A stretch of 57,561 bases of DNA from a virus (Duplodnaviria; Caudoviricetes). The DNA lies in IMG/VR virus record IMGVR_UViG_3300037697_000007, positions 1-57,561 of that record. The stretch is one strand, 5' to 3'. Under the pieces are notes generated by a model. The model made no database searches. It was not told the DNA's origin and worked only from the letters and a program-made list of their open reading frames with translations. How positions within the stretch are numbered: the stretch's first letter is position 1; each line of letters opens with the position of its first letter. The position numbers and the translations under genes were made by a program. Positions 3,743 through 56,400 of the stretch are shown piece after piece.

Positions 3743-3988
3743 TTAGGCGCTCAGTCCTGATAAGTCTTTCGGCTTATCCCAAAATTTGAATGTTCTGTGT
3801 CCCAAAGTATGTTCGCCTTCTACCCACCCGAGTTTTACCAGTGCATCAAAACCATGCGCCCATCCACCGCTAGGGCCTCCGGCATTTTCACATTCGCACA
3901 GCCTTATAGCCCGCTCATACTCGACTCTGCTTACAGGCCCAAGTTTGGCTATTTCGTCGTCCGTCAATTCGTATGCTTGTTTCATCAT
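3743..3988 (-). CDS. Hypothetical protein
   Basis: ORF track; start codon uncertain. Confidence 0.55.
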   Translation of the reverse strand: MMKQAYELTDDEIAKLGPVSRVEYERAIRLCECENAGGPSGGWAHGFDALVKLGWVEGEHTLGHRTFKFWDKPKDLSGLSA

Positions 3989-4082
3989 TCGACTCTTCGT
4001 TGTTGGTGATGGGTGAATCATGCCAGTGTTTTACCTGCCAATCTATAGCCCGAAGGTGTTGGTATCACGTAACACTTTAGTG

Positions 4083-4247
4083 TTACTTCGCCAACGAATC
4101 GGCGAACCAGTCGAGCATCAGCTTTATCTGCGCATCCATAGATTCGATGGCATCATGTGCGGCTGCGTAATCGCCTTTCATGGCGGCATCCTCTGCCACT
4201 TTCAGCAGTCGTTTGGCTTCCAGCATGGCTTCGATGTAGTCGGTCAT
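4083..4247 (-). CDS. Small hypothetical protein
   Basis: MTDYIEAMLEAK... hand-translated; GAGG RBS, ATGA overlap. Confidence 0.55.
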   Translation of the reverse strand: MTDYIEAMLEAKRLLKVAEDAAMKGDYAAAHDAIESMDAQIKLMLDWFADSLAK

Positions 4248-4408
4248 TTCATTTTCCTCAGTTCGTCAGCAGATTCCCGTGCTTGCTTTGCTGCCTCATC
4301 GATGTAGCCCTTTTCAATCATCTCCGCAAGAACGTCGAAGATTGGAGCAAATTTAGATGCGACAGAAACAAAGTTCCGACGCTTATGCCGTTTTTGCTTG
4401 GCGTTCAT
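4244..4408 (-). CDS. Small hypothetical protein
   Basis: MNAKQKRHKRR... hand-translated; GGAGG RBS, ATGA overlap. Confidence 0.55.
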   Translation of the reverse strand: MNAKQKRHKRRNFVSVASKFAPIFDVLAEMIEKGYIDEAAKQARESADELRKMK

Positions 4409-4554
4409 TCTTCCTCCCCATCTGTTTCAATTGCTGCGATATGGTCTGATGTCGGATCAGACAAAACAAGCTCGGCAAACAGCTTGCGCGCTTCGTCGGC
4501 GTTGTCGGCTTCGATCAGGTGCGAGCCTCGGGTGTAGCACTCAAAGAGCGGCAT
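4405..4554 (-). CDS. Small acidic hypothetical protein
   Basis: MPLFECYTRGSHLIEADNADEARKLF... hand-translated. Confidence 0.5.
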   Translation of the reverse strand: MPLFECYTRGSHLIEADNADEARKLFAELVLSDPTSDHIAAIETDGEEE

Positions 4555-4556
4555 GG

Positions 4557-5036
4557 CTACATCGCCCTCCAGCACACATCTGCGCCGCGATGCCCGTGCC
4601 GCATGAATGGGATGTCGTCATCGAAGTTGTCGAAGCTTCCGCTGCCTGACTTCGGAATGTCTGCACTAGGCGTTGGAGCCTGTCGCGCTGGTTTGTTTTC
4701 GCTGGCCTGTTGTTCGCCTTGCGCCTTGCCGCCCAGCAGCGCCAGGTCATTAACCCGAACGTCCAGCGATACACCTTTCCCGCCGTCTTTCTGGTCGTAG
4801 CTGCGCAAGGTCACTTCTCCGCTGATGCCGACAAGCTGGCCCTTGCCGAGGTACGGCAGCACCGATTCTCCGCGCTTGCCGAACATGGCACAATTGGCCC
4901 ACGTCGTTTTCTCTTTGTCGCCGTAGCCTGATTTGACGGCAACGGAGAACGATACGACGCTATCGCCGCCAGTGGTGAAACGTTGCTCGGCATCTTTTCC
5001 GAGGTTGCCGGTGAATGTCCAGTTGTTGAGTCCCAT
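4557..5036 (-). CDS. ssb: Single-stranded DNA-binding protein
   Basis: FTGNLGKDAE OB-fold start, YLGKGQLVGISG, DDDIPF tip. Confidence 0.95.
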   Translation of the reverse strand: MGLNNWTFTGNLGKDAEQRFTTGGDSVVSFSVAVKSGYGDKEKTTWANCAMFGKRGESVLPYLGKGQLVGISGEVTLRSYDQKDGGKGVSLDVRVNDLALLGGKAQGEQQASENKPARQAPTPSADIPKSGSGSFDNFDDDIPFMRHGHRGADVCWRAM

Positions 5037-5064
5037 GATTTTTCCTTATGCGAAGGTGATGCGG

Positions 5065-6756
5065 TTATTGTTCGACTGCGGCAAAGCTCATGTTCATCAG
5101 CCAATCAACAACCGTTTCGGGCGGCACGTTGAAAGTTTCGGCAAGTGCTGCGATGATCTCTTTGTCGGTCGGACGGACGTGGCGTGCTGCGTTTGTGTCG
5201 GATACTGCTTTATCTGAAAGCACAGGAACTGGAGAGGGTTTTTTCGCCATTACAGCGGAGGCAGCATCGTAAGCGTCTTGTTGCTCATTCGATCTATGTA
5301 TTGCATTCGCCTCGGCCTCAACCTTGGCGCGTGCAGCATCTTCCGCCGCCTGCTTTGCCCGTTCTGCGGCAAGGATAGCCTCAGCTTCCGCTTGCGCCTT
5401 GGCGGTGGCCTTACGCTCTTCATCGGCCTGTATTGCAGCGCGTTGTTCTTCCGCCTTAGCGGTTTCTTCCGCCTTGTGCTTGTCGATTCTCCCGGTAACA
5501 ATCGCCTCGAATGCTTCCTTGCCGTTATTGGCAATGAGCTGCGACAGGTCGGAGAACAGGAATCCGTAACCAGCCGATGACTCTTTACACCACGCCAATT
5601 TTTCGCGCACGTCTTTTGCCGATTGGTCGGCGGCGAACTTGCCATCACGAAGCGCGGTATCGACTGCCTCTTGCATGGCCGACATCTTTTTCATGCCCTT
5701 GATCGCTCCGGCGAAATCAGGCCGCACAACTGCAAGTCGGATCGGCTTCGTTTCAGCTTCGAGCGATTCGACATGCGCGGAGAAATCATTCCCCGCCTTG
5801 GTGACAATAGCCAGCTTGCGCGATTCCTTCTCAGATTTCACCAGCTTGTCCAGCATCAGCCGCTTGTCGCGAAGCTGCGCGGCGATGTGGTCAAGCGTCC
5901 GCACTACTTCGTCTACGGTGGACATCTGCGCAAGTACACTGGCCTTTGTGGATTCCAAATTCGATTCGGCATCCTTGCAGAATTTGACGGTGGATTCAGC
6001 GTCGGCAAAGTCCTGATCGCAAACAAGCTCTGTTTTGATCCCGGCGATGAACGCCGTAGCCGCTTCCTTGAATTCTGACAGGTTGGATGCATTCACCATG
6101 CCGGTCGCCTGAACGAATACGGACGGCAGTGCCTTGATTGTCTCGGCTTTCGGCGATTCCTTCGGCTGTTCAATCTCGCCTGCGGCTAACTTGCGCTTGT
6201 ATTCTTCAACATCTTTATCAAATTGCCGCCAACCTGCCATCAGATGATCTGCTCGTCCCGGCACTGCGCGATATTCCATGCTCACGAACTTCTCTGGCGT
6301 TCCATCAGAAACAACGAACAGCACGTAGTCAAATCCATACACCAGAATCTGCTGCTCAAGCTGCCAGTATTTTGCAGGCGGCAAGTCGCCTGCGCGCACC
6401 GAAGCGGCTAGCGTCTCGTTCCACAGCTTCGCCTCCAGTCCGATGCTATCGCCGAATGTAGCGCCATCTGGCGCGGCGGTAAGATACCCGTCGTCTGTTT
6501 CGGCAGATGACGGCACAAAGTCTTCGCCGACAACTTCCTCTGCCAATGCGCGAGCGCCAATCTCGGAAACATTCCCTTTATCCAGCAAATACTTTTGCTG
6601 CCAGTCGGAGAATTCTTTACCGAACCCTGTAGCCATCATGTGAATCAGCTCTGTTCGGCTAGTTGTTGGGTCGCAGCCCATCATCGCCGGTGCTTTGCTT
6701 GCGCTGCGGGATGCTATCCATTCCGCGCTTCCAGCCTTCATTGTAATTTTTCTCAT
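5065..6756 (-). CDS. YqaJ/lambda-Exo-like exonuclease with a long coiled-coil C-terminus
   Basis: SAS..PAMMG, A.PDG, GLEAK and WQLEQQ motifs; adjacent to Bet. Confidence 0.85.
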   Translation of the reverse strand: MRKITMKAGSAEWIASRSASKAPAMMGCDPTTSRTELIHMMATGFGKEFSDWQQKYLLDKGNVSEIGARALAEEVVGEDFVPSSAETDDGYLTAAPDGATFGDSIGLEAKLWNETLAASVRAGDLPPAKYWQLEQQILVYGFDYVLFVVSDGTPEKFVSMEYRAVPGRADHLMAGWRQFDKDVEEYKRKLAAGEIEQPKESPKAETIKALPSVFVQATGMVNASNLSEFKEAATAFIAGIKTELVCDQDFADAESTVKFCKDAESNLESTKASVLAQMSTVDEVVRTLDHIAAQLRDKRLMLDKLVKSEKESRKLAIVTKAGNDFSAHVESLEAETKPIRLAVVRPDFAGAIKGMKKMSAMQEAVDTALRDGKFAADQSAKDVREKLAWCKESSAGYGFLFSDLSQLIANNGKEAFEAIVTGRIDKHKAEETAKAEEQRAAIQADEERKATAKAQAEAEAILAAERAKQAAEDAARAKVEAEANAIHRSNEQQDAYDAASAVMAKKPSPVPVLSDKAVSDTNAARHVRPTDKEIIAALAETFNVPPETVVDWLMNMSFAAVEQ

Positions 6757-17207: not shown

Positions 17208-17307
17208 TTCGCAAATACGTACTTGCAGTTAAATACTGGCTTCAAGGTGATAGCTGGACGCGTGCTGTAACTATGGCAGATGTGATCGTCAATGGGTTTA
17301 AAAGGCC

Positions 17308-17697
17308 ATGAGGAAGCGCGGAAAACGGCACAGCACGCTCGCGGTCGTGCCGCTGGGTGCGAAGCGAAACAAATACGAACTAGACGCACGCGCCGCCTTG
17401 CTTGCACTGGCGAACGACTGCGCCAATCAGTCGCACTTGGTTGACCTGTACGTGCTGGCTGAACTGTGCGACGAATTGACGGATGTTCCGCATATCAGGG
17501 CACATTGTGCCGCCGTGCGCCGGCTGTGCGACGAAATCCACAATGCCGAGTACGTTTGCACGGTATTGCGCTACGGCGCAATGCAATCGAGCGCACACCT
17601 GCTGCTGGACTGGTTCCACCTACAGCCGAATGCGTCCATCGCACGGATCGCGTTGCGCATGGTGGCGAAAATTGAAGGGAACAAGCATGCACAATAG
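17308..17697 (+). CDS. Hypothetical protein
   Basis: 129-aa ORF in the chain. Confidence 0.7.
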   Translation: MRKRGKRHSTLAVVPLGAKRNKYELDARAALLALANDCANQSHLVDLYVLAELCDELTDVPHIRAHCAAVRRLCDEIHNAEYVCTVLRYGAMQSSAHLLLDWFHLQPNASIARIALRMVAKIEGNKHAQ

Positions 17698-17863
17698 CGA
17701 GCGTACCAGCCAAATACACACGGCGCACGTTTACCTATCTGAAGCGCGGCGCAGACGTGGGCAGCAATTCCATGCAGTGCTGCTTAAATGGGCAGCGAAT
17801 TGCCGCATTCGTGCATCGGTTAAATCTCATCACGATGTTGGACAAATGGAGTTATTCGCATGA
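17687..17863 (+). CDS. Hypothetical protein ending GQMELFA
   Basis: GAAGGG RBS; YLSEARRRR. Confidence 0.6.
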   Translation: MHNSERTSQIHTAHVYLSEARRRRGQQFHAVLLKWAANCRIRASVKSHHDVGQMELFA

Positions 17864-17886
17864 GACTACTGGGTGAGCGGATGCAC

Positions 17887-17915
17887 TTGACGCAATAAAA
17901 ATATACACCTATCAT
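17887..17915 (+). promoter_or_regulatory. Promoter TTGACG-17-TATCAT with ATACAC direct repeats
   Basis: ATG 6 nt after the -10; ATACAC at 17903 and 17914. Confidence 0.65.
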
Positions 17916-17921
17916 ACACAC

Positions 17922-18053
17922 ATGAAACGAACTAATATATTTTTCCCAAAGGTGTTGCTTGATCGTCTTGGTGCGTTATCAAAGCTTACCGGACTATCTG
18001 TTGCGGAGCATGTACGCCGCGCTGTTGATGCTTACTTGAAAAAACAAAAATGA
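17922..18053 (+). CDS. Ribbon-helix-helix (CopG-like) protein
   Basis: MKRTNIFFPKVLLDRLGALSKLTGLSVAEHVRRAVDAYL hand-translated. Confidence 0.85.
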   Translation: MKRTNIFFPKVLLDRLGALSKLTGLSVAEHVRRAVDAYLKKQK

Positions 18054-19105
18054 TTCAGTCGCAACTAAAACTCAGGTTGAGCGCAACTAAAGAAGCACAG
18101 CTTAATGACTGGCTATATTCGTTGACTGCGGTACATAACTTCGCGGTGCGCAAGATATAGCTTGACGCAAAGGATGGTATTTACTATACCAGCATGGGTT
18201 TTCATAACATCCTCGCAGATCACGGAAAAAAGATCGGCATCCCAAGCCACACAGTACAAGGGATGCTGTCACAAGTTCATGCTGCGTGGTCGCGTTGCTT
18301 CAAAAAGATTGGCGGAAAGCCGAAGCTTAAAGGGATTCGCAACAAACTAAATTCTATTCCGTTTCCTGACCCCATTAAGTCGCCAGATGGAAATCATGTC
18401 AAATTGCCCGGAGTTGGCTTGCTTCGTTTTCACAAGCAAAAGATACCAGAAGGCAAGATAAAGTGCGGTCGCGTCGTCAAGCGCGCTTCAGGCTGGTATC
18501 TGTGCCTGTTCATTGACGCGGAGCGCATATCCATCGAGCGCACCGCAAACGGAATGATCGGGATAGATCCAGGCTTCAAGGATTTAATTACCACATCTGA
18601 CGGGGAGAAAGTTCCGCACCCGAAAGAGTTGCAAACCTCACTATCCCGTCTAGGACAGGCACAGCGCGGCGGTAATAAGAAACTCGCTGCAAGGCTGCAT
18701 GAGCGTATTAAAAACCAGCGCAAAGACCGCAATCACAAGCTGTCGTTGCGTTTGGTGCAAGAGAATACCTTGATCGTTTTTTCGAAAGATAACATCAAGG
18801 GAGTTGCAAAGAAGTTTGGGAAGAGCGTAGCCAGCAGTGGGCATGCTCAACTTCGGTCAATGTTGGAGTACAAGAGCCGTGCAGGCGGTACTAAATACAT
18901 CGAAGCTATTTCCCGTAATTCCACTAGGACTTGTTCGTCGTGCGGAGCTTTAACCGGGCCGCAAGGATGGGCAGGACTATTAGTAAGGCAATGGAGTTGT
19001 GGCTGTGGTGCCGAGCATGACCGCGATATTAACGCGAGCATCAACACTCTTTTGCTGGGCATGGAACGTGCCTCGAATGATGGAGGGTTGCGCAATGTCG
19101 CGTGA
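18050..19105 (+). pseudogene. tnpB: TnpB RNA-guided nuclease with in-frame TAG at codon 37
   Basis: N-terminal KLRL...NFA HTH, GIDPG (RuvC-I), CSSCG..CGCG zinc finger, HDRDINA (RuvC-III); TAG at 18158-18160. Confidence 0.85.
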
Positions 19106-19446
19106 TTCTTCCCGGAATCCCAAGCCTTTAGGCGCGGGGAGGTTCAAACTCGAAACCTACCCAACCTGCAAAGCCAACCGCAAGACGCGCAAGCCTCTAC
19201 GCACTGCGCTGGAACTGGCATCCGAACACAAACTGAGCATGGCGCAACTGCGCGGCTATCTTGCCGGGAGCGATGCGCCCAAGCCGGAGATGGTCAACCG
19301 GCGCGGAGGTGCTTATTACGAGCCGATCGCGTTCCGCAAGTGGATTGCAAAAAAGTTGCCGCATTGAGCTATAACTTGTAGCAATAATTTATTGCTTGGT
19401 GTAGAGTGTCGGAACGCTAACAGGGCGCAACATTAGAGGGTAGATT

Positions 19447-21702
19447 GTGGCAAGGCCGTTGCATCAAATACCATTGTTCGAAATAAAGCCGGAAAACGAC
19501 GGTAAAAAAACATACCTGCCAATCCTGACCGCTGTAGAAAACGGTAAAGGCGTGCTGGATGTTGACACGGTAAAGGGGTGTGCAATTGGAATGAATGCAC
19601 ATCCCGATGGCGGATGTTATGGCGAGTGTTACGCACAGAAAAACGCTTCACGGTACGGAATAGATTTCACGTTTAGCGTTTCCAGAAAACTTACGGTCGA
19701 TAACTTTGCTGATGTTTTTTGCGCAGTTCGTGATTATCACGCTCCATGGTATCGGATAGGCACTGCTGGCGACCCGTCGCACGATTGGGAAAACACAATC
19801 TACGTTTGTGAGGCGTTGCGCGGAACCGGAAAGATTCCGGTAATTATTACGAAGCACTGGAAGACGTTATCAGATAGAGATTTGCAAAGACTTAAAAACG
19901 TGTCAGCGGTGATAAATACATCAACCAGTGGACTAGATACCGATGCAGAAACAAAGCATCGCGTGAGGCAAATTGAGCGCATTAGAGCGGCAGGAATTGT
20001 TAGCGTTTGCAGGGTGGTAACTTGCGAATATGGAACATCAGAATGGGCTAAAAAGTGCAAAGAAAAGCAGGATTTTTTACTGAGTTTGCATCCTGTTATT
20101 GACAACCCGTTAAGGGCCAGCAACACAAACGAACGAGTGATGAAAGGGGATATTTTACTAACCAGAAAAGAGCAATCAGTAGGCGGCGGGAAATTCGTAT
20201 CACTACATAACGCTGGCATTTATTTAGGCGCATGCGAAAGCTGCCAAGATCAATGCGGAGTTGAAGTTTCAAAAATCAAACCGAAGGAAGAAAAAATGCA
20301 AACAGTTCACCAAGATCAAACCGCACTATTCGAAGATGAAATCGAATGGGTTTATTGCCCTAGCGTTATCGGTTCAGGGTACGAGGAAGATGTTTCGCGG
20401 CTTGCCATCGAAGACGGAATAGCAAAGCGCGCAGCGCGCAAGAACATGCAGATTCATTCAGCCATAATCCTGAAAATAAATGGCGAGTTCAGCGGGTTCT
20501 TCACGTTCCAAGTGAACGACGTATCGAAAGAATTCTGCCTGCTGCAATCGGTAATTGAGCCGAAGAAATACACGAAAGAACTTTACGCGCAGATGGTGCG
20601 CGAGATGCTGGCCCATCGCCCAGAAAATTACCCGGCGATGATTACCACCGACCCAAAGAGCAAGTTCGAAACGCCATCGCTGTTTGAAAGCGTTGGATTT
20701 CAGACGTACCTGAAAATGTCAGGCTATCACTACATGGTCAACGGCAAGCTCGAAGACATGCGTTTGAAGCTGCTGGCACATATCACAATGACAAACGTCT
20801 GGAACACGGTAAAGGGTGACTGGCTGCGGCTGAAAAAGGAATGGCGCGAGCGTATTGATTTCGCGGGCGAGGCCGCTGGTGTTGAAAACCCATCCTATGC
20901 AACCCGTGAAGGATGCTGGCAAGGTGAAAACGGGATGAGCAACGTGGTCAACTCAAAAAAGAAAATCAACGAAGAAGGCGAGATCGAAACAACGACAAAA
21001 TCTCATAACGGCAATGCATCGGTTCTTGACCCGGTTGCATGCGAAGTAATTGCGCGCATGTTCATGCCGAAAGAGGGGAAGCGGATTTACAACCCGTTCG
21101 GCGGCGGCGTACAGATGGGGTACGTGGCCGGCGCATGCGGTTATGAATACTACGCAAGCGAGATTCGCCAGAATCAGGCCGATGCGAACAACAAGATATG
21201 CCAAGAGTTCGATGGGCGCGTTAAGTGGGTGCAAAGCGACTCCTCAACGCATTCCCCTGATGGCATGTTCGACCTTGTGTTCACTTGCCCGCCGTACTAC
21301 AAAGTAGAACATTACGTTGACTATGACGGAAACCCGCCTCCCGGCGAGCTTAACTCGTTCGACACCTACGAAAAGTTCCGCGACTTGTTGTTCACTGGAT
21401 ACAAAAAGGCAATCGAACACTTGAACGACAATCGGTTTTTCGTGGTTATGACGGGTGACAGCCGGGACAAAAACGGCGGATATCATTGCCACGAAGCTGA
21501 AACCGTTGTGTTCTTCAAAGAGCAAGGTCTGGCTGTTTACAACCAGATCGTTTATGTTGAATGCGAGTTTACGCGATTAGCGCATGCGAAAAAGACATTG
21601 CACACGCGGAAATTCCCAAAGCGCGAGCAAAAGATTATCGTCGCTTACAAGGGCAAGATTTCGGACATAAAAGACCACTTTGCACCGATTGGACGGCTGT
21701 AA
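19447..21702 (+). CDS. Radical SAM (SPL-like) + GNAT-like + N4/N6 DNA methyltransferase fusion
   Basis: GC-x11-C-x3-CYA, RIGTAGDP, IITK; SGFFTF...LFESVGF; SVLDP, YNPFGGG, TCPPYY. Confidence 0.8.
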   Translation: MARPLHQIPLFEIKPENDGKKTYLPILTAVENGKGVLDVDTVKGCAIGMNAHPDGGCYGECYAQKNASRYGIDFTFSVSRKLTVDNFADVFCAVRDYHAPWYRIGTAGDPSHDWENTIYVCEALRGTGKIPVIITKHWKTLSDRDLQRLKNVSAVINTSTSGLDTDAETKHRVRQIERIRAAGIVSVCRVVTCEYGTSEWAKKCKEKQDFLLSLHPVIDNPLRASNTNERVMKGDILLTRKEQSVGGGKFVSLHNAGIYLGACESCQDQCGVEVSKIKPKEEKMQTVHQDQTALFEDEIEWVYCPSVIGSGYEEDVSRLAIEDGIAKRAARKNMQIHSAIILKINGEFSGFFTFQVNDVSKEFCLLQSVIEPKKYTKELYAQMVREMLAHRPENYPAMITTDPKSKFETPSLFESVGFQTYLKMSGYHYMVNGKLEDMRLKLLAHITMTNVWNTVKGDWLRLKKEWRERIDFAGEAAGVENPSYATREGCWQGENGMSNVVNSKKKINEEGEIETTTKSHNGNASVLDPVACEVIARMFMPKEGKRIYNPFGGGVQMGYVAGACGYEYYASEIRQNQADANNKICQEFDGRVKWVQSDSSTHSPDGMFDLVFTCPPYYKVEHYVDYDGNPPPGELNSFDTYEKFRDLLFTGYKKAIEHLNDNRFFVVMTGDSRDKNGGYHCHEAETVVFFKEQGLAVYNQIVYVECEFTRLAHAKKTLHTRKFPKREQKIIVAYKGKISDIKDHFAPIGRL

Positions 21703-47459: not shown

Positions 47460-50400
47460 ATGGCATTCAATTTTGACGCGAGCGGCAACCAGATTGACGT
47501 GTCTGCCGGGTTTCATTTCGATGAAGACGGGAATCAGCTAACCGAGCAGCCGAAGTCTTCAGGTCTGATTGGCGGGTCAATCGATGCGCTCAAGTCCGGC
47601 TTCGGCAGCATGTCACGTTCAGCGCAAGCGACCGGATCGGCACTCTCCGGGAATAACGCCAACATTGAAGCATTGGCTGCAGAATCTGAAATTGCCAATA
47701 AGCAGCGACCGATTGAGGCACAGCAGTTCACAGAGTCCGTGCAGCGCAATACCGCAGAGTCGATGGCGGATGATAGAAAAGTCGGATGGCTTGAGGCTAT
47801 CGGTGATGTGGCTGCGGCGGCATGGGAGAACAAGACTGGCGCGGTACAGTCTATTGTCGAGCAGTTACCGAACGCCGTACCTGTGCTTGCGGCAGGATGG
47901 GCTGGGGCGAAAGCCGGTGCAGTTGGTGGCGGTGCGGCTGGTACGATGGTTGCACCAGGCGCGGGAACAGCAATCGGCGCAGGTATCGGCGGCGTTGTTG
48001 GCGCATTCTCCGGTATGTTTCTCGGCAATGCAATGCTTGAAACCGGCGCGAAGGCGATAGAGAAAGCCGAAGGCGGGCTGACCGATGTTGAGCGCGGCGA
48101 GGCTATCAGCGAGGGCGCAACCAAGGGCTCAGTGATTGCCGGGATCGATCTGTTAACGCTAGGTATCGGCGGAAAGCTGATGCAGTCTGTCGGCAAGGCT
48201 GCAACCAAGGCCGGTGCGATGGCGGAAGCGGAGGTCATCGCCAAGGCCGGAATCGACATCAGCAGCCCGGTAATTGTAGCCAAGGCATTAGCAGCAGACC
48301 CGGCATTGAAGGCGGCAGCTTCGGCAGCGGGCAATGCCGCAGCGCGCGCCACGATCACCACCTCGCAGAAAGCGGCGATGGCCGGCGGCGGGCTGGCGCT
48401 TGAGTCAGTCGGTGAGACAGCCGGCGAATACTTGGGTGAGATGGCCGCAACCGGCGAAGGTAACGTGACCGATGCCGTGCTGGAAGGCATGTTGAGCTTG
48501 GGCCAGTCCAGCATCGAGACGGCGTACAACTATGGGCGCGTCGGCAACAATCTTGATGCCAGCAATATCGCCAAGACGGGGCTGATATTCAAATCTCCAG
48601 AAAAGCCGCTTGCGCTTGGATATAATCAAGCAGCCGACGCATTCGGATCAAACGCGATTGTCTTCCCCGATGGTTCTGTCGCAACCAGCCAGAATCAGGT
48701 AGACGACTACCTGAACAGCCTTCCTGAAAATGAACGCATAGCTGCACGGGCATCATTATTCGGCTACGCGCAACAGCCAAAAACCCCGGAGCAAATCACC
48801 GCCGAAGTCATTTCCAAGCCCACCCTGGATGAAGCCATCAAAGCATCCAGCGACTTGCTGAATGATCCGATTCTTGACGATGCGGTGCAACGCGAGTTCG
48901 GTTCGCTGACCGAAACTCAGTCCCAGCGCGACATCGGCGCACTATCCCAAGGCGAGACCGGGTTCGGCGCAGTCTCCGAGCTGGCCGACCTTGCCGCACA
49001 AGAGCGCGCGGATGTTGAACAACGTCGTTCTGCCATCGCAGAACAGCAAGCCGAGTCTGGCGCATTGCGCATGGAATCCGAACTGGAAACCACCGATGCG
49101 CGCGTCACTGGTGCCGCCGCAGCACAAACACGCCAGAGCCGCCTTGCCGCACTGGATAGCATCTATGCCAACCCGGACGAGCGCACTCCCGGAATGTCGT
49201 TTCTGGCGCATCTGGAAGCCAACTATCCGCGCAACCCGCTACCGACACCGGAAGAGAAGCGCATCATCGCCCAGCGCGAACAGGCGTTTCAGGCGTTCAA
49301 GGCCATGCCGGAAAGCCAGCCAGAGACGCTTGGCGTTCCCGCGCTTGAGGAGAAAGCGCAGAACGGAGAGCGCCCGCTTGAAGCGAAGATCGCCCAATTG
49401 AATGAATATCTGGCGAACGGCTACAAGCCGATTGCCGGCGGCAAGATGCTGGCGAACGAGAAGGGTAAGAAGCTGATCCTGACGAAAGCGCAGCGAGAAT
49501 ACCTTGCAAACATGCCATCCGCGCAGCAATCTCAGGAGAGTGGCATTCCTGACCAAACGGCTGCGCAGCCTATTCAAGCGGAGGCCGCTAATGGCACAAC
49601 TGCTGCACCTATGGATGCCGGAGTGGATCGAGCAACCGCTGCAAGCCCAAGTGCTGACACCGCAGGAAGCGCAGCAAATGGCGTTCTTCGACCTGAGACT
49701 GTCGCAGCAGCCGGACGGGATGGATTGCCCAGATCACCTGTGGCAACTGATGCAGCGAGTGGACTTGTACCGGCACCAGATCGGGCCGATGCAGTAGCAA
49801 AATGGCTAGACAATGCAGCCCAGAAACTAGAGCAAGAGTCTTGGGGGCAGGACGTACTGGATACCATGCAGGAAAATGGGGAATCTCCGCAGGCTGTGGC
49901 AGAATCATTCTGGGCTGAAACCTATCCCGCCATGCCGGAGCAAGGCCAGAAGTTATTCAAGCGCCTTTACAAAAAGAATACAGGGCAATCATTGCAAGAC
50001 GGAGATAATCCTCTGGATATGATTGACCTTGGCGATACGGCGGAAAACTTGGAAGGGACGGAGCGCGGTTTTGTTGCGCTGATGCGCGAGGCAAACAGCC
50101 AATTTGGGCGCGGAAGGCTTGAGAAAGGAATTGTTGTTGATGGCGATGTTGTCGCCAAGCAACTGCCAAAATCCGCAGAAAATCCGCAAAAAGTCGAGTT
50201 AGACGCGACTACCTCGCCGACTACCTCGCCCAGCAAGAAGCCGTTCACCTGGCAAATGCCAAAGGCCGAGTTTGTCGCCCAGAAAGTCGCGGAAGGATTG
50301 TCGGAAGAGACGGCTGCGCGTGGGCACGAGAATGCGGTAAAGCTGGCGCTCAAGATGAAGAAGGACGTGCCGGCCAAGGTGCTGGCGGACTACCAAGGAG

Positions 50401-53400
50401 CAGGCGACGTTGCGCCACCGGCTGACGCTGATGCAATCGGTGCGGCTGTATTGCCTGTTGTTCAACAGGTCGGATCGCAGCCAACACAGTCGGATGGCGC
50501 GGTAGATGGAAGTTCGGTAGCAGAATTAACGCCAGCCGCGAACTGGAAGCAAACCGCGCAAGACATCATCAGCAAGGATGTGTTTCGCGATACGGTTGCA
50601 AAATCAATTCAGAACGACGGGCAGAAAGTCCTCGACGCGATATTTAACAATGACCTCGCCGCGCTGGTCGGGATCAATGCGAAATATGGACAAGAGGCTG
50701 GCCGTAACCAAGGAGGCGGCGGAGCAGGGCCAGGGAAAGTAAAACAGGCAAGGCGCGGTGTCGAGCCTGTATTCAATGCCGCCATGATTGCCATGCAAGG
50801 AATGAAGGCAGAGCGCTCCGCAAGCGTCAAGGCAGAAACGTCAAGCACGCAAGCCGGAAACGTAAAGCCGGAAGCGCAGGCGACCGAGCAAAGCAAGCAA
50901 TCCGCCATCGAGTCAGTCAAGGCCGACACCGAGCTTTCCAAGGCCGACAAGCTGAACACGATTAAGGCGCTCAACAACGGCGACATTTCGCCTGAGGATG
51001 TGGCGGATGTGGTGGGGAAGGCTGCGCCTATTGAAGCTGATGATGCGGCGCAGTCCGAACAGTCACAGGAGCGTCAGCTTGACGCGAAAGAACCAGAAGC
51101 GCAATATGATGCGTATGACACACTTGAAACTCGCCCAGAAACCAAGCCGGAGCAACTTGAAGCCGGACGGTCATCTCTTGCGGATGTCGAGAGACGCATC
51201 TTCGGGGTCAATCGTTCTTCGTTGCGAGGTTCAGCGGCCATACTTGGCAGTAATATCCCGTCCGACTTCCGCGAAAAAGGCTACACCTCACTCGTAGGGC
51301 AAAATGTTGAAAGCTCGCACGACCTAGCTATGATTTCGCAGGTCTTGCGAGATCCGCGATTCGAAACATTCCGCGTTTTTTTCGTCAAGGACAATAAGAT
51401 CGTCGGCGAACGCGCTTACACATCGAGGCTTGCCGCATCGGTAAGCATTCCGCGAGACCTTCACGAACACATCAGCGCCGACATGGGGCGCACTGGAGCG
51501 AATGGATACTGGTTACTGCATAACCACCCCGCCGGATTTGCCAAAGCGTCATCGTCGGATATTAACTTGACTGAGATGCTGGCGACCAATGCAAGCGGGA
51601 TGCTTGGTCACGTTATCATCGATCACAACGAATACAATTCGATCACCATAAAGTCCGGGCTGTACGGCCCGGAAGCCAAACAGGAAATCATCAAGGCGGA
51701 TTTGGGCGCGATGTCCGTATCGCCGGAAGTTCCGCACCCCACACTTGGCGCAACCATAACCAAGCCAGCAGACTTTGCCGCTATCGCACGACAACTCCAA
51801 AGGGATGGGGTGTATTCGTCAATCATCGGAACGGGCGGCGAGGCTGGTGCTGTAACGATGATACTTGACGTGCCAGATATGGCAAGCCGCAAAGGTGTTG
51901 ACAAGCTACGCGCAGGGGCCGCAATACGCCGCGCCGCAAGGGAAACGCATTCAGGAAGATTGTTTGCCGTTGTGCCGGGGGAATTGAGCCAGTACGCACA
52001 CCTGATGGATGCCGGATTATTTACCGACATTATCAGCCAATCAACCGGACAATCCGCCGCAGAACTTGGAATGCTTGGACGGGCAAGCCACGGCACGGCA
52101 GCGGAGAGGCGCGGAATGCTTGCGTATGTTGCGGAGCCGACTTCGCCTGATTACAGGCAGACCATCGAATCCAAGGAAACAGACCAAGGAACCGCGCTGT
52201 ACTCGTTCGCCGGGCAGAATGCGCAGACCGCAGACAAGATGGCTTTGTCCGCCGCGCAAGACCGCCTGAACGCGGGCGAGAATGCAGAGACGGTGCGCAA
52301 GGAAACCGGCTGGAGCAAAGGCGCGGATGGAAAGTGGAGGTTCGAGATCGACGACAGCGGCGCGAAGCTGCATAAGCCGTGGCCGAGCAAAGGCCAGTTG
52401 TTCGGCGACATTCTGAACGACATGCGCAAGCGCCGGTTCGCCGAGACTGGCAGCTTGAGCTTCACGGTTGGCGATGTACTCGACCATCCGGCACTGTTCG
52501 CTGCATATCCTGAGCTTGCGAATATCTCACTGACAGACCAGAAAGAGTCCGGCGCAAGCTACTCGCCAAAAGGAAGCGACCCGGCAACGATCCGCATCAG
52601 CAAAGATACGGCGATGTCGGATGTCGTCTCGAAAATATTGCATGAAGTGCAGCACGTAATCCAGCGCGGCGAGGGTTTCGCAACTGGAGGAACCGTAGAA
52701 TCGGCAAGGAAAATAAAAGCTGAAATCCTGAAATCAGATTTGGCAAAAATCAACGACGAGATCATTTCCAACGGGGAGAAGCGCGGAAAGCTAAATGGGC
52801 GCGCATGGGATGAGAATGTGGCGCGGCACCTCGAGCTTGTATCAAAGCGCGATGCGCTGGATGAAGAGTACCAAATCCTGAAAACTGACATGGCCCCAGC
52901 CGCACGAGCCTATCAGCGCCTTGCCGGTGAAGTCGAAGCGCGCAATACCCAATCGCGCCAGCGCATGACCGCCGACGAGCGCCGCACTGTCTCGCCGGAA
53001 TCGACCGCGGATGTCCGCGCGGAAGACGTAATCGTGGTGTTCAACGGAAAGGAGATGAACAACGCACCTATCCCGGCGAATGCGATTCAGGCCGACGAAC
53101 GACGCACCCCACCCCCCGACGCGCACTCTGTCGCATCCGCCCAATCCGCCCTCCTATCCGCGCACAGCGGCAAGATTCATGGCGCGCTCAAGGCGATGTT
53201 CGACGCGGGCAAGGCGAGCTCGATCACTGCTGCTCAGGCGGCGAATATCGTGGGCGAGGATGCGCTGTATTCGCGCGAAGAATACTTCAAGCGAGCAGAT
53301 CAGATTGAACGCGCACTGCAATCGATGGGATTGCGCGTAGATAGAGAAAAATCAAATGTTTCGGTATCAACGTATATCTATGCATATGCGCCAGAAGGTT

Positions 53401-56400
53401 CGCAATTCAAAGAGAACGAAGGCGAATATTTGAAGATTCGAATATCGAACCATAAGCTACCTGACTCATATGTTGAGCCGGACTTCGAAGTAATGGTCGG
53501 CGGCGGACATGATGGATCGCTGATGAATGATTATGGGACGTGGGATGAATCTGTTGAATTTGTCGCGCGCAAATTTGATATGGATGTTCCGCCAGTCATA
53601 AAGCGCCTTGATTCAAAGGCGAAAAGTGATGCGAAAAAAGCCACCAAGAAAGCTCGGGATTATGAAATAAATGAGTTGATTCGGAAAATAGAAGTCGCCA
53701 AGAAAGGCGCTTATTCGAAGTCTGGCTCGGGTATCTGGTGGCTGAATAAAGATTCTGGAAAATTGTCAGAGATGGCGCAGATAGGCAAGATGCCGGAAAT
53801 GAATTCAGAGCAAGTTAAGGTTGAATATATATCTCGCCTAGAAAAACAGCTTGCTGAAAAACAAGGCGGATTAAATCAAGACATCCGCTACGCCAACGAT
53901 GGCCGCGCGCTGGCCTTCTTCAACCCTGCGGACGGCATCACCTATTTCATCGCCGACCATCTCCCAAAGAGCGCCAGCGCGAAAGGACTGCGCGGGCTAG
54001 TTGCGCATGAGATCGGCGTGCATGCTTTACATCTAGGCCGTGACTCGAAGGAATGGCAGTCCATCTTGAAGCAAGTTGAACTGATGAACCGGGCCGGCAA
54101 TGCCAAAGTAAAGGCTGCTTGGGCGCAAGTTCCTGAAGGCACTCCTGCCGCACATGTTGTCGAAGAAACGCTGGCCTATCTGGTGCAGAATAATCCTGAT
54201 ATGCCGATAGTAAGGCGCGTCATCGCTTGGCTGCGGAACGCATTGCGTAACCTTGGGAAATCGCTACCTGTGTTGCAACGCGGGAAGTTCATGGCATGGG
54301 CTAACAGCCTGACCGAGGATGATCTTGTATTCATGGCGCAGGATGCGATGGCGAACTGGCGGCCTGAGAGTCAGGTGGAATCGGCTGGCAATGCGGCGGC
54401 GCTTATGTCGGTTGGAGGATACAACGTAGAGCAACAATTGCTTGATGATCTTGGCGCTATCCATCCTGATGTTGACGCATGGGTAAATATCAGCGGAGAC
54501 ACAATCAAGCTGGATGAATTGCAAATGCCGAAGGCAATTCGCGGGCAGGGCATTGGTTCGCGCTTCATGGATATTCTGACCGCATACGCCGACAAAAACG
54601 GCATGACCATCGCACTCACCGCAGCAGGTGATTTTGGCGGAAGCCGTGCCGGACAGGAGCGGTTCTATCGGCGGTTCGGATTCGTTCCAAACAAAGGACG
54701 TAGCAAGGATTACGCAATCAGCGAGAACATGATTCGCCGACCGGATAAGAATGCGGCGGCGCAGTTCAGCCGGTCGCAAGGCAATGCGCAGCCGGTCAAC
54801 CCGCGTGGCGGCAAGATTATTGGAGACTCTGGAAACTACGACGAAGCACAGCGCGCTGCACTGGAGCGCACTGGCTCTGTCATCACCAAGAAAACCATCG
54901 CCGATACGCTTCACAAGCTCAAGCAAGACGCATGGAAGAAGATGGCGCAAGGATTGGCTGACCAGTTCCGCCCAATCCGAGACTTGGATCAGCACGCCTA
55001 CAACCTGCTGCGCTTGTCCAAGGGTGCTACCGGAGCATTCGAGGCATTCATGCACTACGGCAAGCTATCGCTCAACGACGGCGCTACCGATGCAGACCAG
55101 AGCGGCGGGGTGCTTGAGAAAGTGTTCTTCCCGCTAGGCAAGGAATCGACAGACTTCTTGCGCTGGATTGCCGGTAATCGGGCTGAGAGGCTAATGGGAG
55201 AGGGCAAGGAGCGCCTATTCAACAAGGATGATATTGCCGCGTTCAAATCGCTAGCAGACCGCAAGGGAGATTTTGCCAATGACTACACGTTAATCGACGG
55301 AACCGTCACCCGCGACCGCAAGGCCATCTACAAGGATTCGCTGGTCAAGTTCAACGAGTTCAACAAGAACGTGCTGGACATTGCTGAACAATCTGGCCTG
55401 ATCGATGGCGACAGCCGCAAGCTGTGGGAGCATGAATTCTACGTCCCGTTCTACCGAGTTGCCGAAGAGAACGAAGGCGAAGCGCGCGGCATGTATATCA
55501 AGTCAGGCGTGATCCGCCAAGAGGCGTTTAAGAAGCTTAAGGGCGGCGAAGAGCAACTGAATGACCTGATGGCGAACACGCTGGGAAATTGGGCGCATCT
55601 GATAGATGCGTCAGCCAAGAACCGCGCGGCAACTGCAACGCTTGAAGCCGCAGAAAAGATGGGAGTCGCGCGCAAGGCGGTTGCTGGCGATACAAAGACT
55701 GTCTGGGTTATGGGGACAGTAGAGAAGAAAATCGCAAAAGGTACAGAGTACGAAGAGAATGGCGTAACCAAAGTATCTGATGGAACTACGGTGATAACGT
55801 ATCACGGGAAAGTCGAATACAAGATTGACGATCCATACATTGTGGAAGCCGTATCCTCGCTGGAATTCTCCGGTATTCGTGGCCCGATGATGGATATTCT
55901 TTCCAAGCCGAAGCATTGGCTGACCATTGGTGTGACGGCATCCCCGTTCTTCAAGATCCGCAACCTAATCCGCGACTCTGTGCAGGCGATTGCGACATCT
56001 GACTTGAACTACAACCCGGCATCGAACGTGATAGAGGGATGGAAGCTAACCAACCGCAAGAAGCCTTCGCAGCAGTACGTTTCCGCGCTGGCCGGCGGCG
56101 GTTTGATTCGCTTTGGCACAATGCTTGAAGGCAACGAGGCAAGCCGGGTGCGCCAGCTTATCAAGCAGGGCGCGAAGGACGAGCATATTCTTGACGACGA
56201 AGGCAAGATCAGAGTCTTCTACGACAAGTATGTTGAGCCATCAATCACCATGTACAACGAACTCGGGAACCGTGGCGAGGAAGTCAACCGCATGTCGCTG
56301 TATCATCAGTTGCGCGAGAAAGGCATGGGCCACGCAGAAGCGTCTGTGATGTCGCGCGACCTGATGGACTTTTCCATGCAAGGATCGTGGAAGACGGTTC

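Follow-up and report, generated by a model that had tools for sequence, protein, structure and literature searches.

What becomes of a phage gene when a mobile element lands on its start codon, and what becomes of the element? This question is raised by a complete viral genome of 57,561 bp (IMG/VR record IMGVR_UViG_3300037697_000007, positions 1 to 57,561; hereafter the window), in which an insert holding a small ribbon-helix-helix (RHH) gene, a tnpB gene and a terminal hairpin separates the first bases of a 74-amino-acid (aa) gene from the remainder of its open reading frame (ORF). The record carries direct terminal repeats, is rated 100% complete and encodes a large terminase, a portal or adaptor protein, a major head protein and a DnaB-like helicase, which together identify the virus as a tailed phage; the element stretch is present once in this genome. 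A first-pass annotation, made from the sequence alone, had described the locus as a candidate RNA-guided homing cassette whose promoter is assembled from its target motif. We arrive at another answer: the insert is probably a 1283-bp, non-autonomous and decaying derivative of the IS200/IS605 family (IS605-type), whose right end may read out into the interrupted gene by providing a Shine-Dalgarno (SD) motif and a start codon. An insertion on the start codon would then be tolerated, because translation from the right-end start would yield a fusion protein.

The limits of the insert follow from alleles that lack it. A search of viral contigs with the 72 codons that lie 3′ of the element returned three relatives, of which two (L002 and L003) are empty alleles, colinear with both window flanks and with nothing between them; they read ATGAGACTTGAA..., that is, ...GCATGAGACTTGAA(A/T)CCTACCCC.... 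In addition, a 3667-nucleotide (nt) contig from a sediment sequencing run (X7; depth 15) joins position 17864 to 19148, skipping 1283 nt, with 3 nt compatible with either side of the joint. The empty alleles and this joint therefore place the insert at 17865-19147 on the + strand, although ACT at 17865-17867 recurs at 19148-19150, so that the boundaries can slide by up to 3 nt. We regard the identity and boundaries of the element as close to certain.

The insertion point lies between the fifth and sixth bases of the interrupted gene, within a target site that reads ATGAG (17860-17864, + strand; start codon plus two nt, as established from L002, L003 and the X7 contig). The TGA contained in this site (17861-17863) closes an upstream open frame of 127 codons. 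The gene matched no known family in Pfam and PHROG searches, and homologues were found in just three other viral contigs. One homologue, 59% identical (L004, ~3960-4170), starts with ATGAAT and so presents, empty and on its own start codon, the ATGAA that is canonical for the NTGAA target of this element family (see below). The 72 codons 3′ of the insert are still open in the window and are 90-98% identical to the empty alleles, while the native start now opens a 12-codon mini-ORF (17860-17898) that ends at a TAA between the −35 and −10 elements of the promoter described below. Within run X7, which represents one sediment sample, the element-free relative (depth 15) occurs together with contigs identical to the filled allele (depth 2-4); this relative is a diverged strain, and its site reads ATGAG.

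These alleles also show how the earlier boundaries had been reached. The first-pass annotation had put the right junction at 19147, correctly, as the flanks of relatives diverge directly after this position, and the left junction at 17892, which is 27 nt too far to the right. Its argument was that deletion of 17892-19147 (1256 nt) leaves an 83-aa ORF from the ATG at 17860. The computation holds, and it does so because the offset of 27 nt is a multiple of 3: any cut at 17865+3k closes the frame, a 1-in-3 chance, and the uninterrupted gene measures 74 aa, not 83. Looking for the empty allele in relatives, the check that the annotation had itself proposed, gave a junction different from the one claimed.

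The element belongs to a family that we collected through its TnpB relatives, comprising 20 viral loci, with up to 85% aa identity, together with 80 loci from metagenomes and 80 from genomes. Members differ in what precedes tnpB. Directly upstream of it, and overlapping it through ATGA, L005/6/9/23, L012, L013, L018 and L022 carry a tnpA gene for a Y1 transposase (PDHIHLL motif); an RHH gene takes this place in the window, L008/L020, L011, L025, L047 and L050; and many other members possess tnpB alone. Consistent with this, the gap between left end and tnpB across 42 independent complete left ends was tnpA-sized in 16 cases, RHH-sized in 4, 48-90 nt in 19 and of other size in 3. No tnpA gene was found in the window insert among its ORFs or by Pfam search, and the copy is therefore non-autonomous. 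Of the proteins that mark IS605 elements it thus has TnpB, with OrfB_IS605 and TNB domains, and lacks the Y1 TnpA, which bears out its initial description as an IS200/IS605-type element made of RHH and tnpB genes without a transposase gene. It is a decaying copy of a known kind and, as such, ordinary.

Several relatives record rearrangements of their own. L005 and L006, IMG/VR loci like L007, agree over more than 500 nt of left flank as well as in their left end and tnpA, and differ in their right flanks and by 1 nt in the right-end hairpin; L007 shares the right flank of L006, and of its tnpA only the last codons remain, fused to a phage ORF. L025 (reverse strand, ~3985-5129 in reverse-complement coordinates) retains a full left end, the RHH gene and the right end, with a GIY-YIG-like ORF replacing most of tnpB, of which only the first and last residues of the protein remain.

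The part of the window copy that bears on the fate of the interrupted gene is its right end. Throughout the family this end reads GGAATC, hairpin, GGAGGTTCAA, after which the flanks diverge at once, including those of six copies in a single Waddliaceae genome. In the +1 frame relative to tnpB, and overlapping the last tnpB codons, the window has the SD motif GGAGG (19082-19086), 8 nt and then an ATG (19095-19097; the whole at 19082-19097, + strand). This ATG opens a predicted 90-aa fusion ORF (19095-19367, + strand) composed of a 17-codon leader (MSRDSSRNPKPLGAGRF), a Lys in place of Arg2, and residues 3-74 (72 codons) of the interrupted gene. We lean slightly towards the view that the fusion is translated in this phage, which would mean that the gene is probably still made, with a new N-terminus.

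A comparison of right ends across the family revealed that this arrangement is common. Among 73 distinct right ends the +1 frame is open in 72, and 61 have a start codon at the same place (ATG in 49), accompanied in 52 of the 61 by an SD-like motif. The flanks were then considered. We took 70 independent ones on the right side, each with an identified right end, a TnpB of at least 50% identity and no less than 200 nt of sequence beyond the element, and called an ORF clear when it lay on the same strand, was open at the boundary, had at least 60 aa and was at least 1.5 times as long as the next frame. Such an ORF was present in 39 flanks, the proteins of which are mutually unrelated, and it lay in the +1 frame relative to tnpB in 29, in frame 0 in 5 and in frame +2 in 5 (p = 1.9e-7 against 1/3; 29 v 5 against 1/2, p = 1.9e-5). 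Under a stricter rule that admits no competing frame on the opposite strand, 22 of 27 were in +1, with 10 flanks assigned an opposite-strand ORF and 33 unclear. Between the tnpB stop and the tip of the right end lie 41, 42 or 43 nt, a length that tracks the phase of the flank, and the one-base hairpin difference between L005 and L006 leaves each in frame with its own flank. The effect follows the frame of the element and not the phase of the motif; control NTGAA sites are distributed over the three phases as 233 : 256 : 63.

Insertions also cluster near the 5′ ends of ORFs. For 18 reconstructed sites with both ends available, the median open stretch upstream measures 12.5 codons, compared with 53 for 552 control NTGAA sites (p = 2.5e-4). 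Where the flank ORF is in +1, its first native ATG falls at codon 26 (median), so that most of these ORFs are without a nearby start of their own. A site resembling a translation start (SD, start codon and an ORF of at least 50 aa) was found in 6/37 cases against 45/1177 controls (p = 0.0035), which indicates that start-codon targeting holds for a subset only and is modest in effect. Closure of an upstream ORF by the TGA of the target (an ATGA junction), which is true of the window, was not significantly enriched (8/35 against 162/1109, p = 0.22).

We read these patterns as survivorship or adaptation, in which elements would persist where their right end restarts translation of the gene they have hit. 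The chances seem evenly balanced that this clade, present in phages and bacteria, is so constructed as to insert at or just ahead of gene starts, with its right end donating a ribosome-binding site, a start codon and a leader of ~17 codons. NTGAA may in that case represent a start codon followed by the two leading bases of a second codon for Lys or Asn, with the leader ending ...TTC AA in phase. Beside these counts stands a bacterial case, L123 (1387-2598 and flank), a tnpB-only member in the Thiobaca trueperi DSM 13587 chromosome that has landed precisely on the TTG with which an sbcD-like (Metallophos) gene starts; its right-end ATG frame continues into the gene, and position 1 of Pfam Metallophos falls at fusion residue 17, the end of the 17-codon leader.

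If the right end of the window copy resembles that of its relatives, the left end does not. The canonical family left end runs NTGAA / C, a 3-5 nt purine-rich linker, TGTGAGCGCAAT, a hairpin, GGGGTGAGCG... and a TTGAC that serves as −35 element. Compared with the full left ends of L005, L011, L025, L047 and L050, the window has only a remnant (17865-17886, + strand) that consists of the 3′ arm of the hairpin and GGGTGAGCGGATGCAC. It begins ACTACTGGGTGAGCGGATGCAC, which corresponds to the hairpin from its 3′ arm onward, and from 17871 on it is 86% identical to the left end of L047 over 35 nt. About 30 nt of the canonical end are gone, namely the first base C, the linker, TGTGAGCGCAAT, the 5′ arm and the loop, along with the adjacent CAAT. 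Of the subterminal hairpins expected at both ends of an IS605 element, the right one is present and covarying, and the left one is reduced to its 3′ arm. The L008-type element likewise lacks a left-end hairpin, and a search for its empty allele returned only the L008-type element itself (2/2 loci). At L018 (~2400-2610) the left end of a tnpA-tnpB element is immediately preceded, on its 5′ side, by an inverted copy of a right-end tip (TTGAACCTCC plus hairpin).

The target of the family could be read directly from the left flanks. Among 42 independent flanks there were 22 with ATGAA, 12 with TTGAA, 5 with GTGAA and 3 with CTGAA, in a search that required TGAA; when the search was anchored on the left-end interior only, TGAA preceded 48 of 51 contexts, the others being two offset artefacts and one GAGAA, and none of the 51 read TGAG or TTGAC. 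The GAGAA, which precedes a second left-end copy in L093 (~514), is the sole real exception. In L011, L022 and L025 a cut after TGAA, as opposed to TGAAC, brings the motif's ATG into frame with a long right-flank ORF, and we therefore placed the cut after TGAA. The left-end hairpin is preceded on its 5′ side by CAAT and the right-end hairpin by GAAT; the difference between the two cleavage motifs, TGAA and TCAA, is complementary to this one. In IS608 the bases beside the 5′ arm of the left-end hairpin guide the transposase, and by analogy the difference seen here would fit the guide-pairing rule of that element.

The window flank ATGAG departs from NTGAA in its last base. The element may have inserted at this near-cognate site and then lost its first 30 nt, or it may have been acquired through illegitimate recombination at ACT. 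We considered and rejected a canonical insertion at a TTGAA 7 nt deeper in the gene, followed by deletion, as this also needs a 7-nt duplication on the right side and misfits the right junction.

Behind the left-end remnant lies a sigma-70-type promoter (17887-17915, + strand), with −35 TTGACG (17887-17892), a 17-nt spacer and −10 TATCAT (17910-17915), which scores 10/12. TTGAC is found at the equivalent place in the left ends of L005, L008, L011, L025, L047 and L050, the flanks of which are unrelated, and in L005-type elements it precedes tnpA. This bears on the account given by the first-pass annotation, an active homing cassette in which a left-flank TTGAC is both the target-adjacent motif (TAM) and the −35, so that a promoter exists only after correct insertion. 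That account was right about the role of TTGAC as −35; the spacing and sequence make a good promoter match, and the 17892-19147 deletion leaves an open frame. It was wrong about the position, as TTGAC lies 22 nt inside the insert according to three empty alleles and, irrespective of the flank, within the left end in all relatives examined. Since the −35 is carried by the element, no promoter is assembled by insertion, and the regulatory trick that had been claimed is not there. With a family target of NTGAA and a stop codon in tnpB besides, and with an empty-allele junction that differs from the proposed one and a motif other than TTGAC, both of which the annotation had itself named as grounds for giving the idea up, we consider this account refuted and scarcely credible.

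The tnpB gene occupies 18050-19105 (+ strand; 351 codons through the stop) and is a pseudogene. It matches Pfam PF07282 (Cas12f1-like_TNB, 2.4e-17) and PF01385 (OrfB_IS605, 1.1e-10), as well as the ISDra2 TnpB structures 8bf8/8exa (4.3e-19); its product is 84% identical in aa to those of L005-L007, and the nearest tnpB in hand is ~82% identical in DNA. The frame is intact apart from one in-frame TAG at codon 37 (18158-18160, + strand), where 13 of 14 family members have Glu and L018 has Gly; contigs from two further runs, X3 and X4, carry the same base. Recoding of TAG was considered and rejected: it is an ordinary stop in this phage, where it ends 4 of 37 long + strand ORFs, and no tRNA genes were detected in the genome.

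The nuclease site of the family is unusual in its own right. The RuvC-I (GIDPG) and RuvC-III (HDRD) motifs, each with its Asp, are present in the window, and where the canonical RuvC-II Glu would be, all family members have Ser (FSKDN). The window copy has neither an intact tnpB ORF nor a standard D-E-D triad. An invariant Glu, E285 (YIEV), lies 40 residues past the FSKDN Ser and is a candidate substitute; we infer that the site of intact relatives is rearranged but active, with a predicted catalytic role for E285. An AlphaFold2 model of L005 TnpB (mean predicted local distance difference test score, pLDDT, 63, and below 50 at residues 235-287) was too poor in this region and was not used for E285. 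TnpB branches, some of them virus-specific, in which the RuvC Glu has moved to the next strand have been described (PMC10691335), as has a RuvC-II Glu shifted by 50 residues in Fanzor2 (PMC11832414). ApmFz2, a Fanzor2 protein with this 50-residue shift, compared with 40 residues for E285, was recovered by phmmer (9b0l, 5.4e-8).

An alignment of 24 relatives over the right end and putative omega-RNA scaffold region (18978-19147, + strand; upstream limit provisional), which overlaps the 3′ end of tnpB, contains compensatory changes in 14 of 26 predicted pairs. A 5-bp stem at ~19057-19073 has two-sided changes at 5/5 pairs (2 to 11 sequences each), and the terminal hairpin (~19118-19140) also covaries, which speaks for a structured RNA of the omega-RNA kind that has been conserved. 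In Rfam searches nothing in the whole window reached gathering scores, and 17800-19300 gave one spurious match (E = 1.2). The right end closes with TTCAA (19143-19147, + strand), its last bases plus cleavage motif, one base off the target motif TTGAA. The first 16 nt of the right flank (19148-19163, + strand), ACTCGAAACCTACCCA, follow this boundary and form the would-be guide, which we take to start at 19148 by analogy with ISDra2 TnpB; both the hairpin ending in TCAA and this guide had been placed correctly. The empty alleles mismatch the guide at positions 4 and 16 (L003) or 4, 8 and 16 (L002). They carry ATGAG 5′ of the target, against NTGAA in the family, and so lack a cognate TAM, which we assume to be the same as the transposase target.

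It is quite improbable that this copy still serves as a weapon or homing device against element-free relatives in co-infected cells, as had been proposed, with TnpB made by read-through or by restart at Met49 and guided to its cut by the right-flank RNA, which would spread the element or give the carrier phage an advantage. The intact tnpB frame beyond the TAG, the conserved RNA structure and the joint occurrence of element-free and filled alleles in X7 would be in keeping with such a role, and homing by break repair requires no left end. Set against them are an ordinary TAG stop shared by X3 and X4, no tRNA genes, the loss of 48 N-terminal residues on a Met49 restart, the occurrence of ATGAG at 0/51 family left-end contexts, and a guide mismatch at position 4 in the empty alleles. 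[quoted passage not shown] Loss of the left end and the codon-37 TAG would leave an element that a transposase supplied in trans could not move and that performs no RNA-guided cutting. It represents an old or unsampled lineage, non-autonomous, most likely no longer mobilisable, and without a nuclease.

The RHH gene (17922-18053, + strand; Arc-type, 43 aa) is, by contrast with these decaying mobility parts, intact along with its promoter. It matches Pfam RHH_3 (3.5e-5) and RHH_1 (1.6e-4) and PHROG 876, a transcriptional repressor group (6e-4). Like the RHH gene of Arc-containing IS605 elements it lies within the element boundaries, with the left-end remnant on one side and tnpB, whose start overlaps the RHH stop (ATGA), on the other. 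Its ATG stands 6 nt 3′ of the −10, which fits a leaderless mRNA, as had been noted; in all six RHH elements the ATG follows the −10 by 6-10 nt, which points to leaderless transcripts throughout this group. Two direct ATACAC repeats at 17903 and 17914, also noted before, are 11 nt apart and bracket or overlap the −10 (17903-17919, + strand), forming a candidate RHH operator. In the window this pairing is seen once, where 0.01 occurrences are expected, and the genome has no second pair site. Direct repeats 10-11 nt apart lie at the −10 of all six RHH elements and fall into three operator types: ATGTGC...ATGTGTGC goes with the MKRTNYYFPEQM type, ATACAC...ATACAC with the MKRTNIFFPKVL of the window, and a third pair is found in L050.

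We consider it reasonably likely that the RHH protein, encoded in the place of tnpA behind the left-end promoter, represses that leaderless promoter through the ATACAC repeats at its −10. Of the autoregulated element envisaged at the outset, repression by the RHH protein hence stays plausible, with repeats at the −10 in all three operator types, and gain of the promoter on insertion falls away. Such autoregulation is a reasonable inference and, as it is already described for other elements, not new: Arc-type RHH proteins of IS605-family elements bind and repress their native promoter in ChIP-seq and reporter assays, with DNA contacts mapped to residues of the N-terminal strand, according to the available part of a recent preprint (Moon 2026, bioRxiv 10.64898/2026.09.24.754181).

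A further reading, which we judge very improbable, is exaptation, in which RHH regulates phage genes or the dead TnpB acts as a TldR-like RNA-guided repressor. The survival of the RHH gene and promoter amid decay speaks in its favour, as does a second RHH element, of L008 type, without a left-end hairpin. TldR proteins are characterised by conserved loss of the RuvC active site, are non-mobile and lie beside the genes they regulate, their TnpB losses being at the active site or the C-terminus. The window TnpB is lost through a very early nonsense codon, unlike these, keeps the RuvC-III HDRD and has close relatives in insertion sequence (IS) elements with tnpA; moreover, the guide matches its own flank only, and the single ATACAC pair offers RHH no second site in the genome.

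Several observations weigh against the overall reading of a decaying element whose right end reads out into the gene. The region with SD and ATG also encodes the C-terminus of TnpB and the stems of the omega-RNA, so that its conservation may have other causes, and in aligned right ends the SD looks, by eye, to be paired in a stem, a pairing that is absent from the predicted consensus structure. Ten of the 39 clear flanks lie outside the +1 frame, and the window itself fails the automatic rule for a clear ORF (77 aa versus 72 aa in two frames) and was judged to be in frame from homologues. The NTG of the motif is itself a likely start codon in only 7/34 cases against 97/1105 controls (p = 0.03, SD not required). 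Folded as a single sequence, 18978-19163 does not outperform its shuffles (z = −0.77), and the sequencing runs listed included no RNA run containing the stretch. As for the rest of the element, the single promoter-like site in 17300-19700 (2.4 kb) does not exceed shuffled sequence (mean 2.3), TnpB reinitiation at Met49 or stop read-through is possible, and the left junction, with ATGAG for NTGAA, a cut left end and a 3-nt ACT overlap, fits no simple canonical event.

An alternative to read-out is that the frame match in this phage is an accident, the 74-aa gene being knocked out and dispensable and the right-end ATG never used. The match in a single insertion has a chance of 1 in 3, the gene is small, belongs to no known family and recurs in just three other viral contigs, and the SD may be hidden in the stem seen by eye. 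Yet the excess of +1 frames (29/39; 22/27) and the clustering at 5′ ends are hard to explain without selection, and 72 downstream codons have stayed open at 90-98% identity to the empty alleles. On these grounds accident seems possible but rather unlikely, and we prefer the reading in which the right-end SD and ATG, with an open frame into the flank, would let the interrupted gene be made as the 90-aa fusion.

A search of the GenBank phage collection gave no close phage relative, and for the region only weak RNA-ligase matches. Just 3′ of the element lies a 751-aa ORF (19447-21702), the C-terminal third of which matches DNA methyltransferases, and an ORF of 3320 aa (47460-57422) is found near the end of the genome.

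How, finally, does the element compare with known systems? Its family resembles IS608 and ISDra2 in the hairpins near the element ends, in insertion on the 3′ side of a 4-5 nt motif, apparently without duplication, in a right end in TCAA with GAAT just 5′ of the right-end hairpin, and in a putative guide taken from the right flank; their transposition and homing by TnpB and omega-RNA were reportedly worked out by Barabas in 2008, Karvelis in 2021 and Meers in 2023. The element differs from them in the NTGAA target of its family, absent tnpA, truncated left hairpin, interrupted tnpB and missing canonical RuvC-II Glu. Also similar are the Arc-IS605 elements of Moon, Zedaveinyte, Wiegand & Sternberg (10.64898/2026.09.24.754181), which, in the part of that preprint available, share a small RHH gene beside tnpB and repeats over their own promoter, and include elements with arc and tnpB only; homing-endonuclease neighbours are noted there too (compare L025). 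Many of those elements have arc and tnpA divergent from tnpB around a bidirectional promoter, whereas in the window RHH and tnpB are co-directional, overlap by ATGA and follow a leaderless left-end promoter, in a decayed copy within a phage. In archaeal RHH/MazE-TnpB pairs, too, a small RHH gene immediately precedes a tnpB whose catalytic site is rearranged, and the available text proposes these pairs as toxin-antitoxin modules (PMC10691335); as described there they are non-mobile archaeal loci, in contrast to the window pair, which lies between recognisable IS ends and has close relatives with tnpA.

None of these comparisons touches the right-end read-out, which at the family level may be the new part and worth following up; the open-access text that we searched, including a review (PMC13565253), describes no right-end start codon or fusion in TnpB elements. 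If true, read-out would make insertions into tightly packed genomes nearly harmless for translation and would explain why TnpB elements persist in compact phage genomes; it would also mean that gene callers mis-annotate the N-termini of genes beside such elements, and would constitute a natural, portable start-codon cassette. Its nearest counterparts are other selfish elements that cut the cost of landing within a gene, namely IStrons, which are transposon-encoded group I introns (10.1101/2023.11.20.567912), and the introns and inteins with homing endonucleases (PMC13565253). As far as the accessible parts of these sources go, IStrons, introns and inteins restore the product by RNA or protein splicing, whereas the element proposed here would supply a replacement SD and start codon and so leave an N-terminal fusion, a third way, besides introns and inteins, of cancelling the cost of sitting in a gene.

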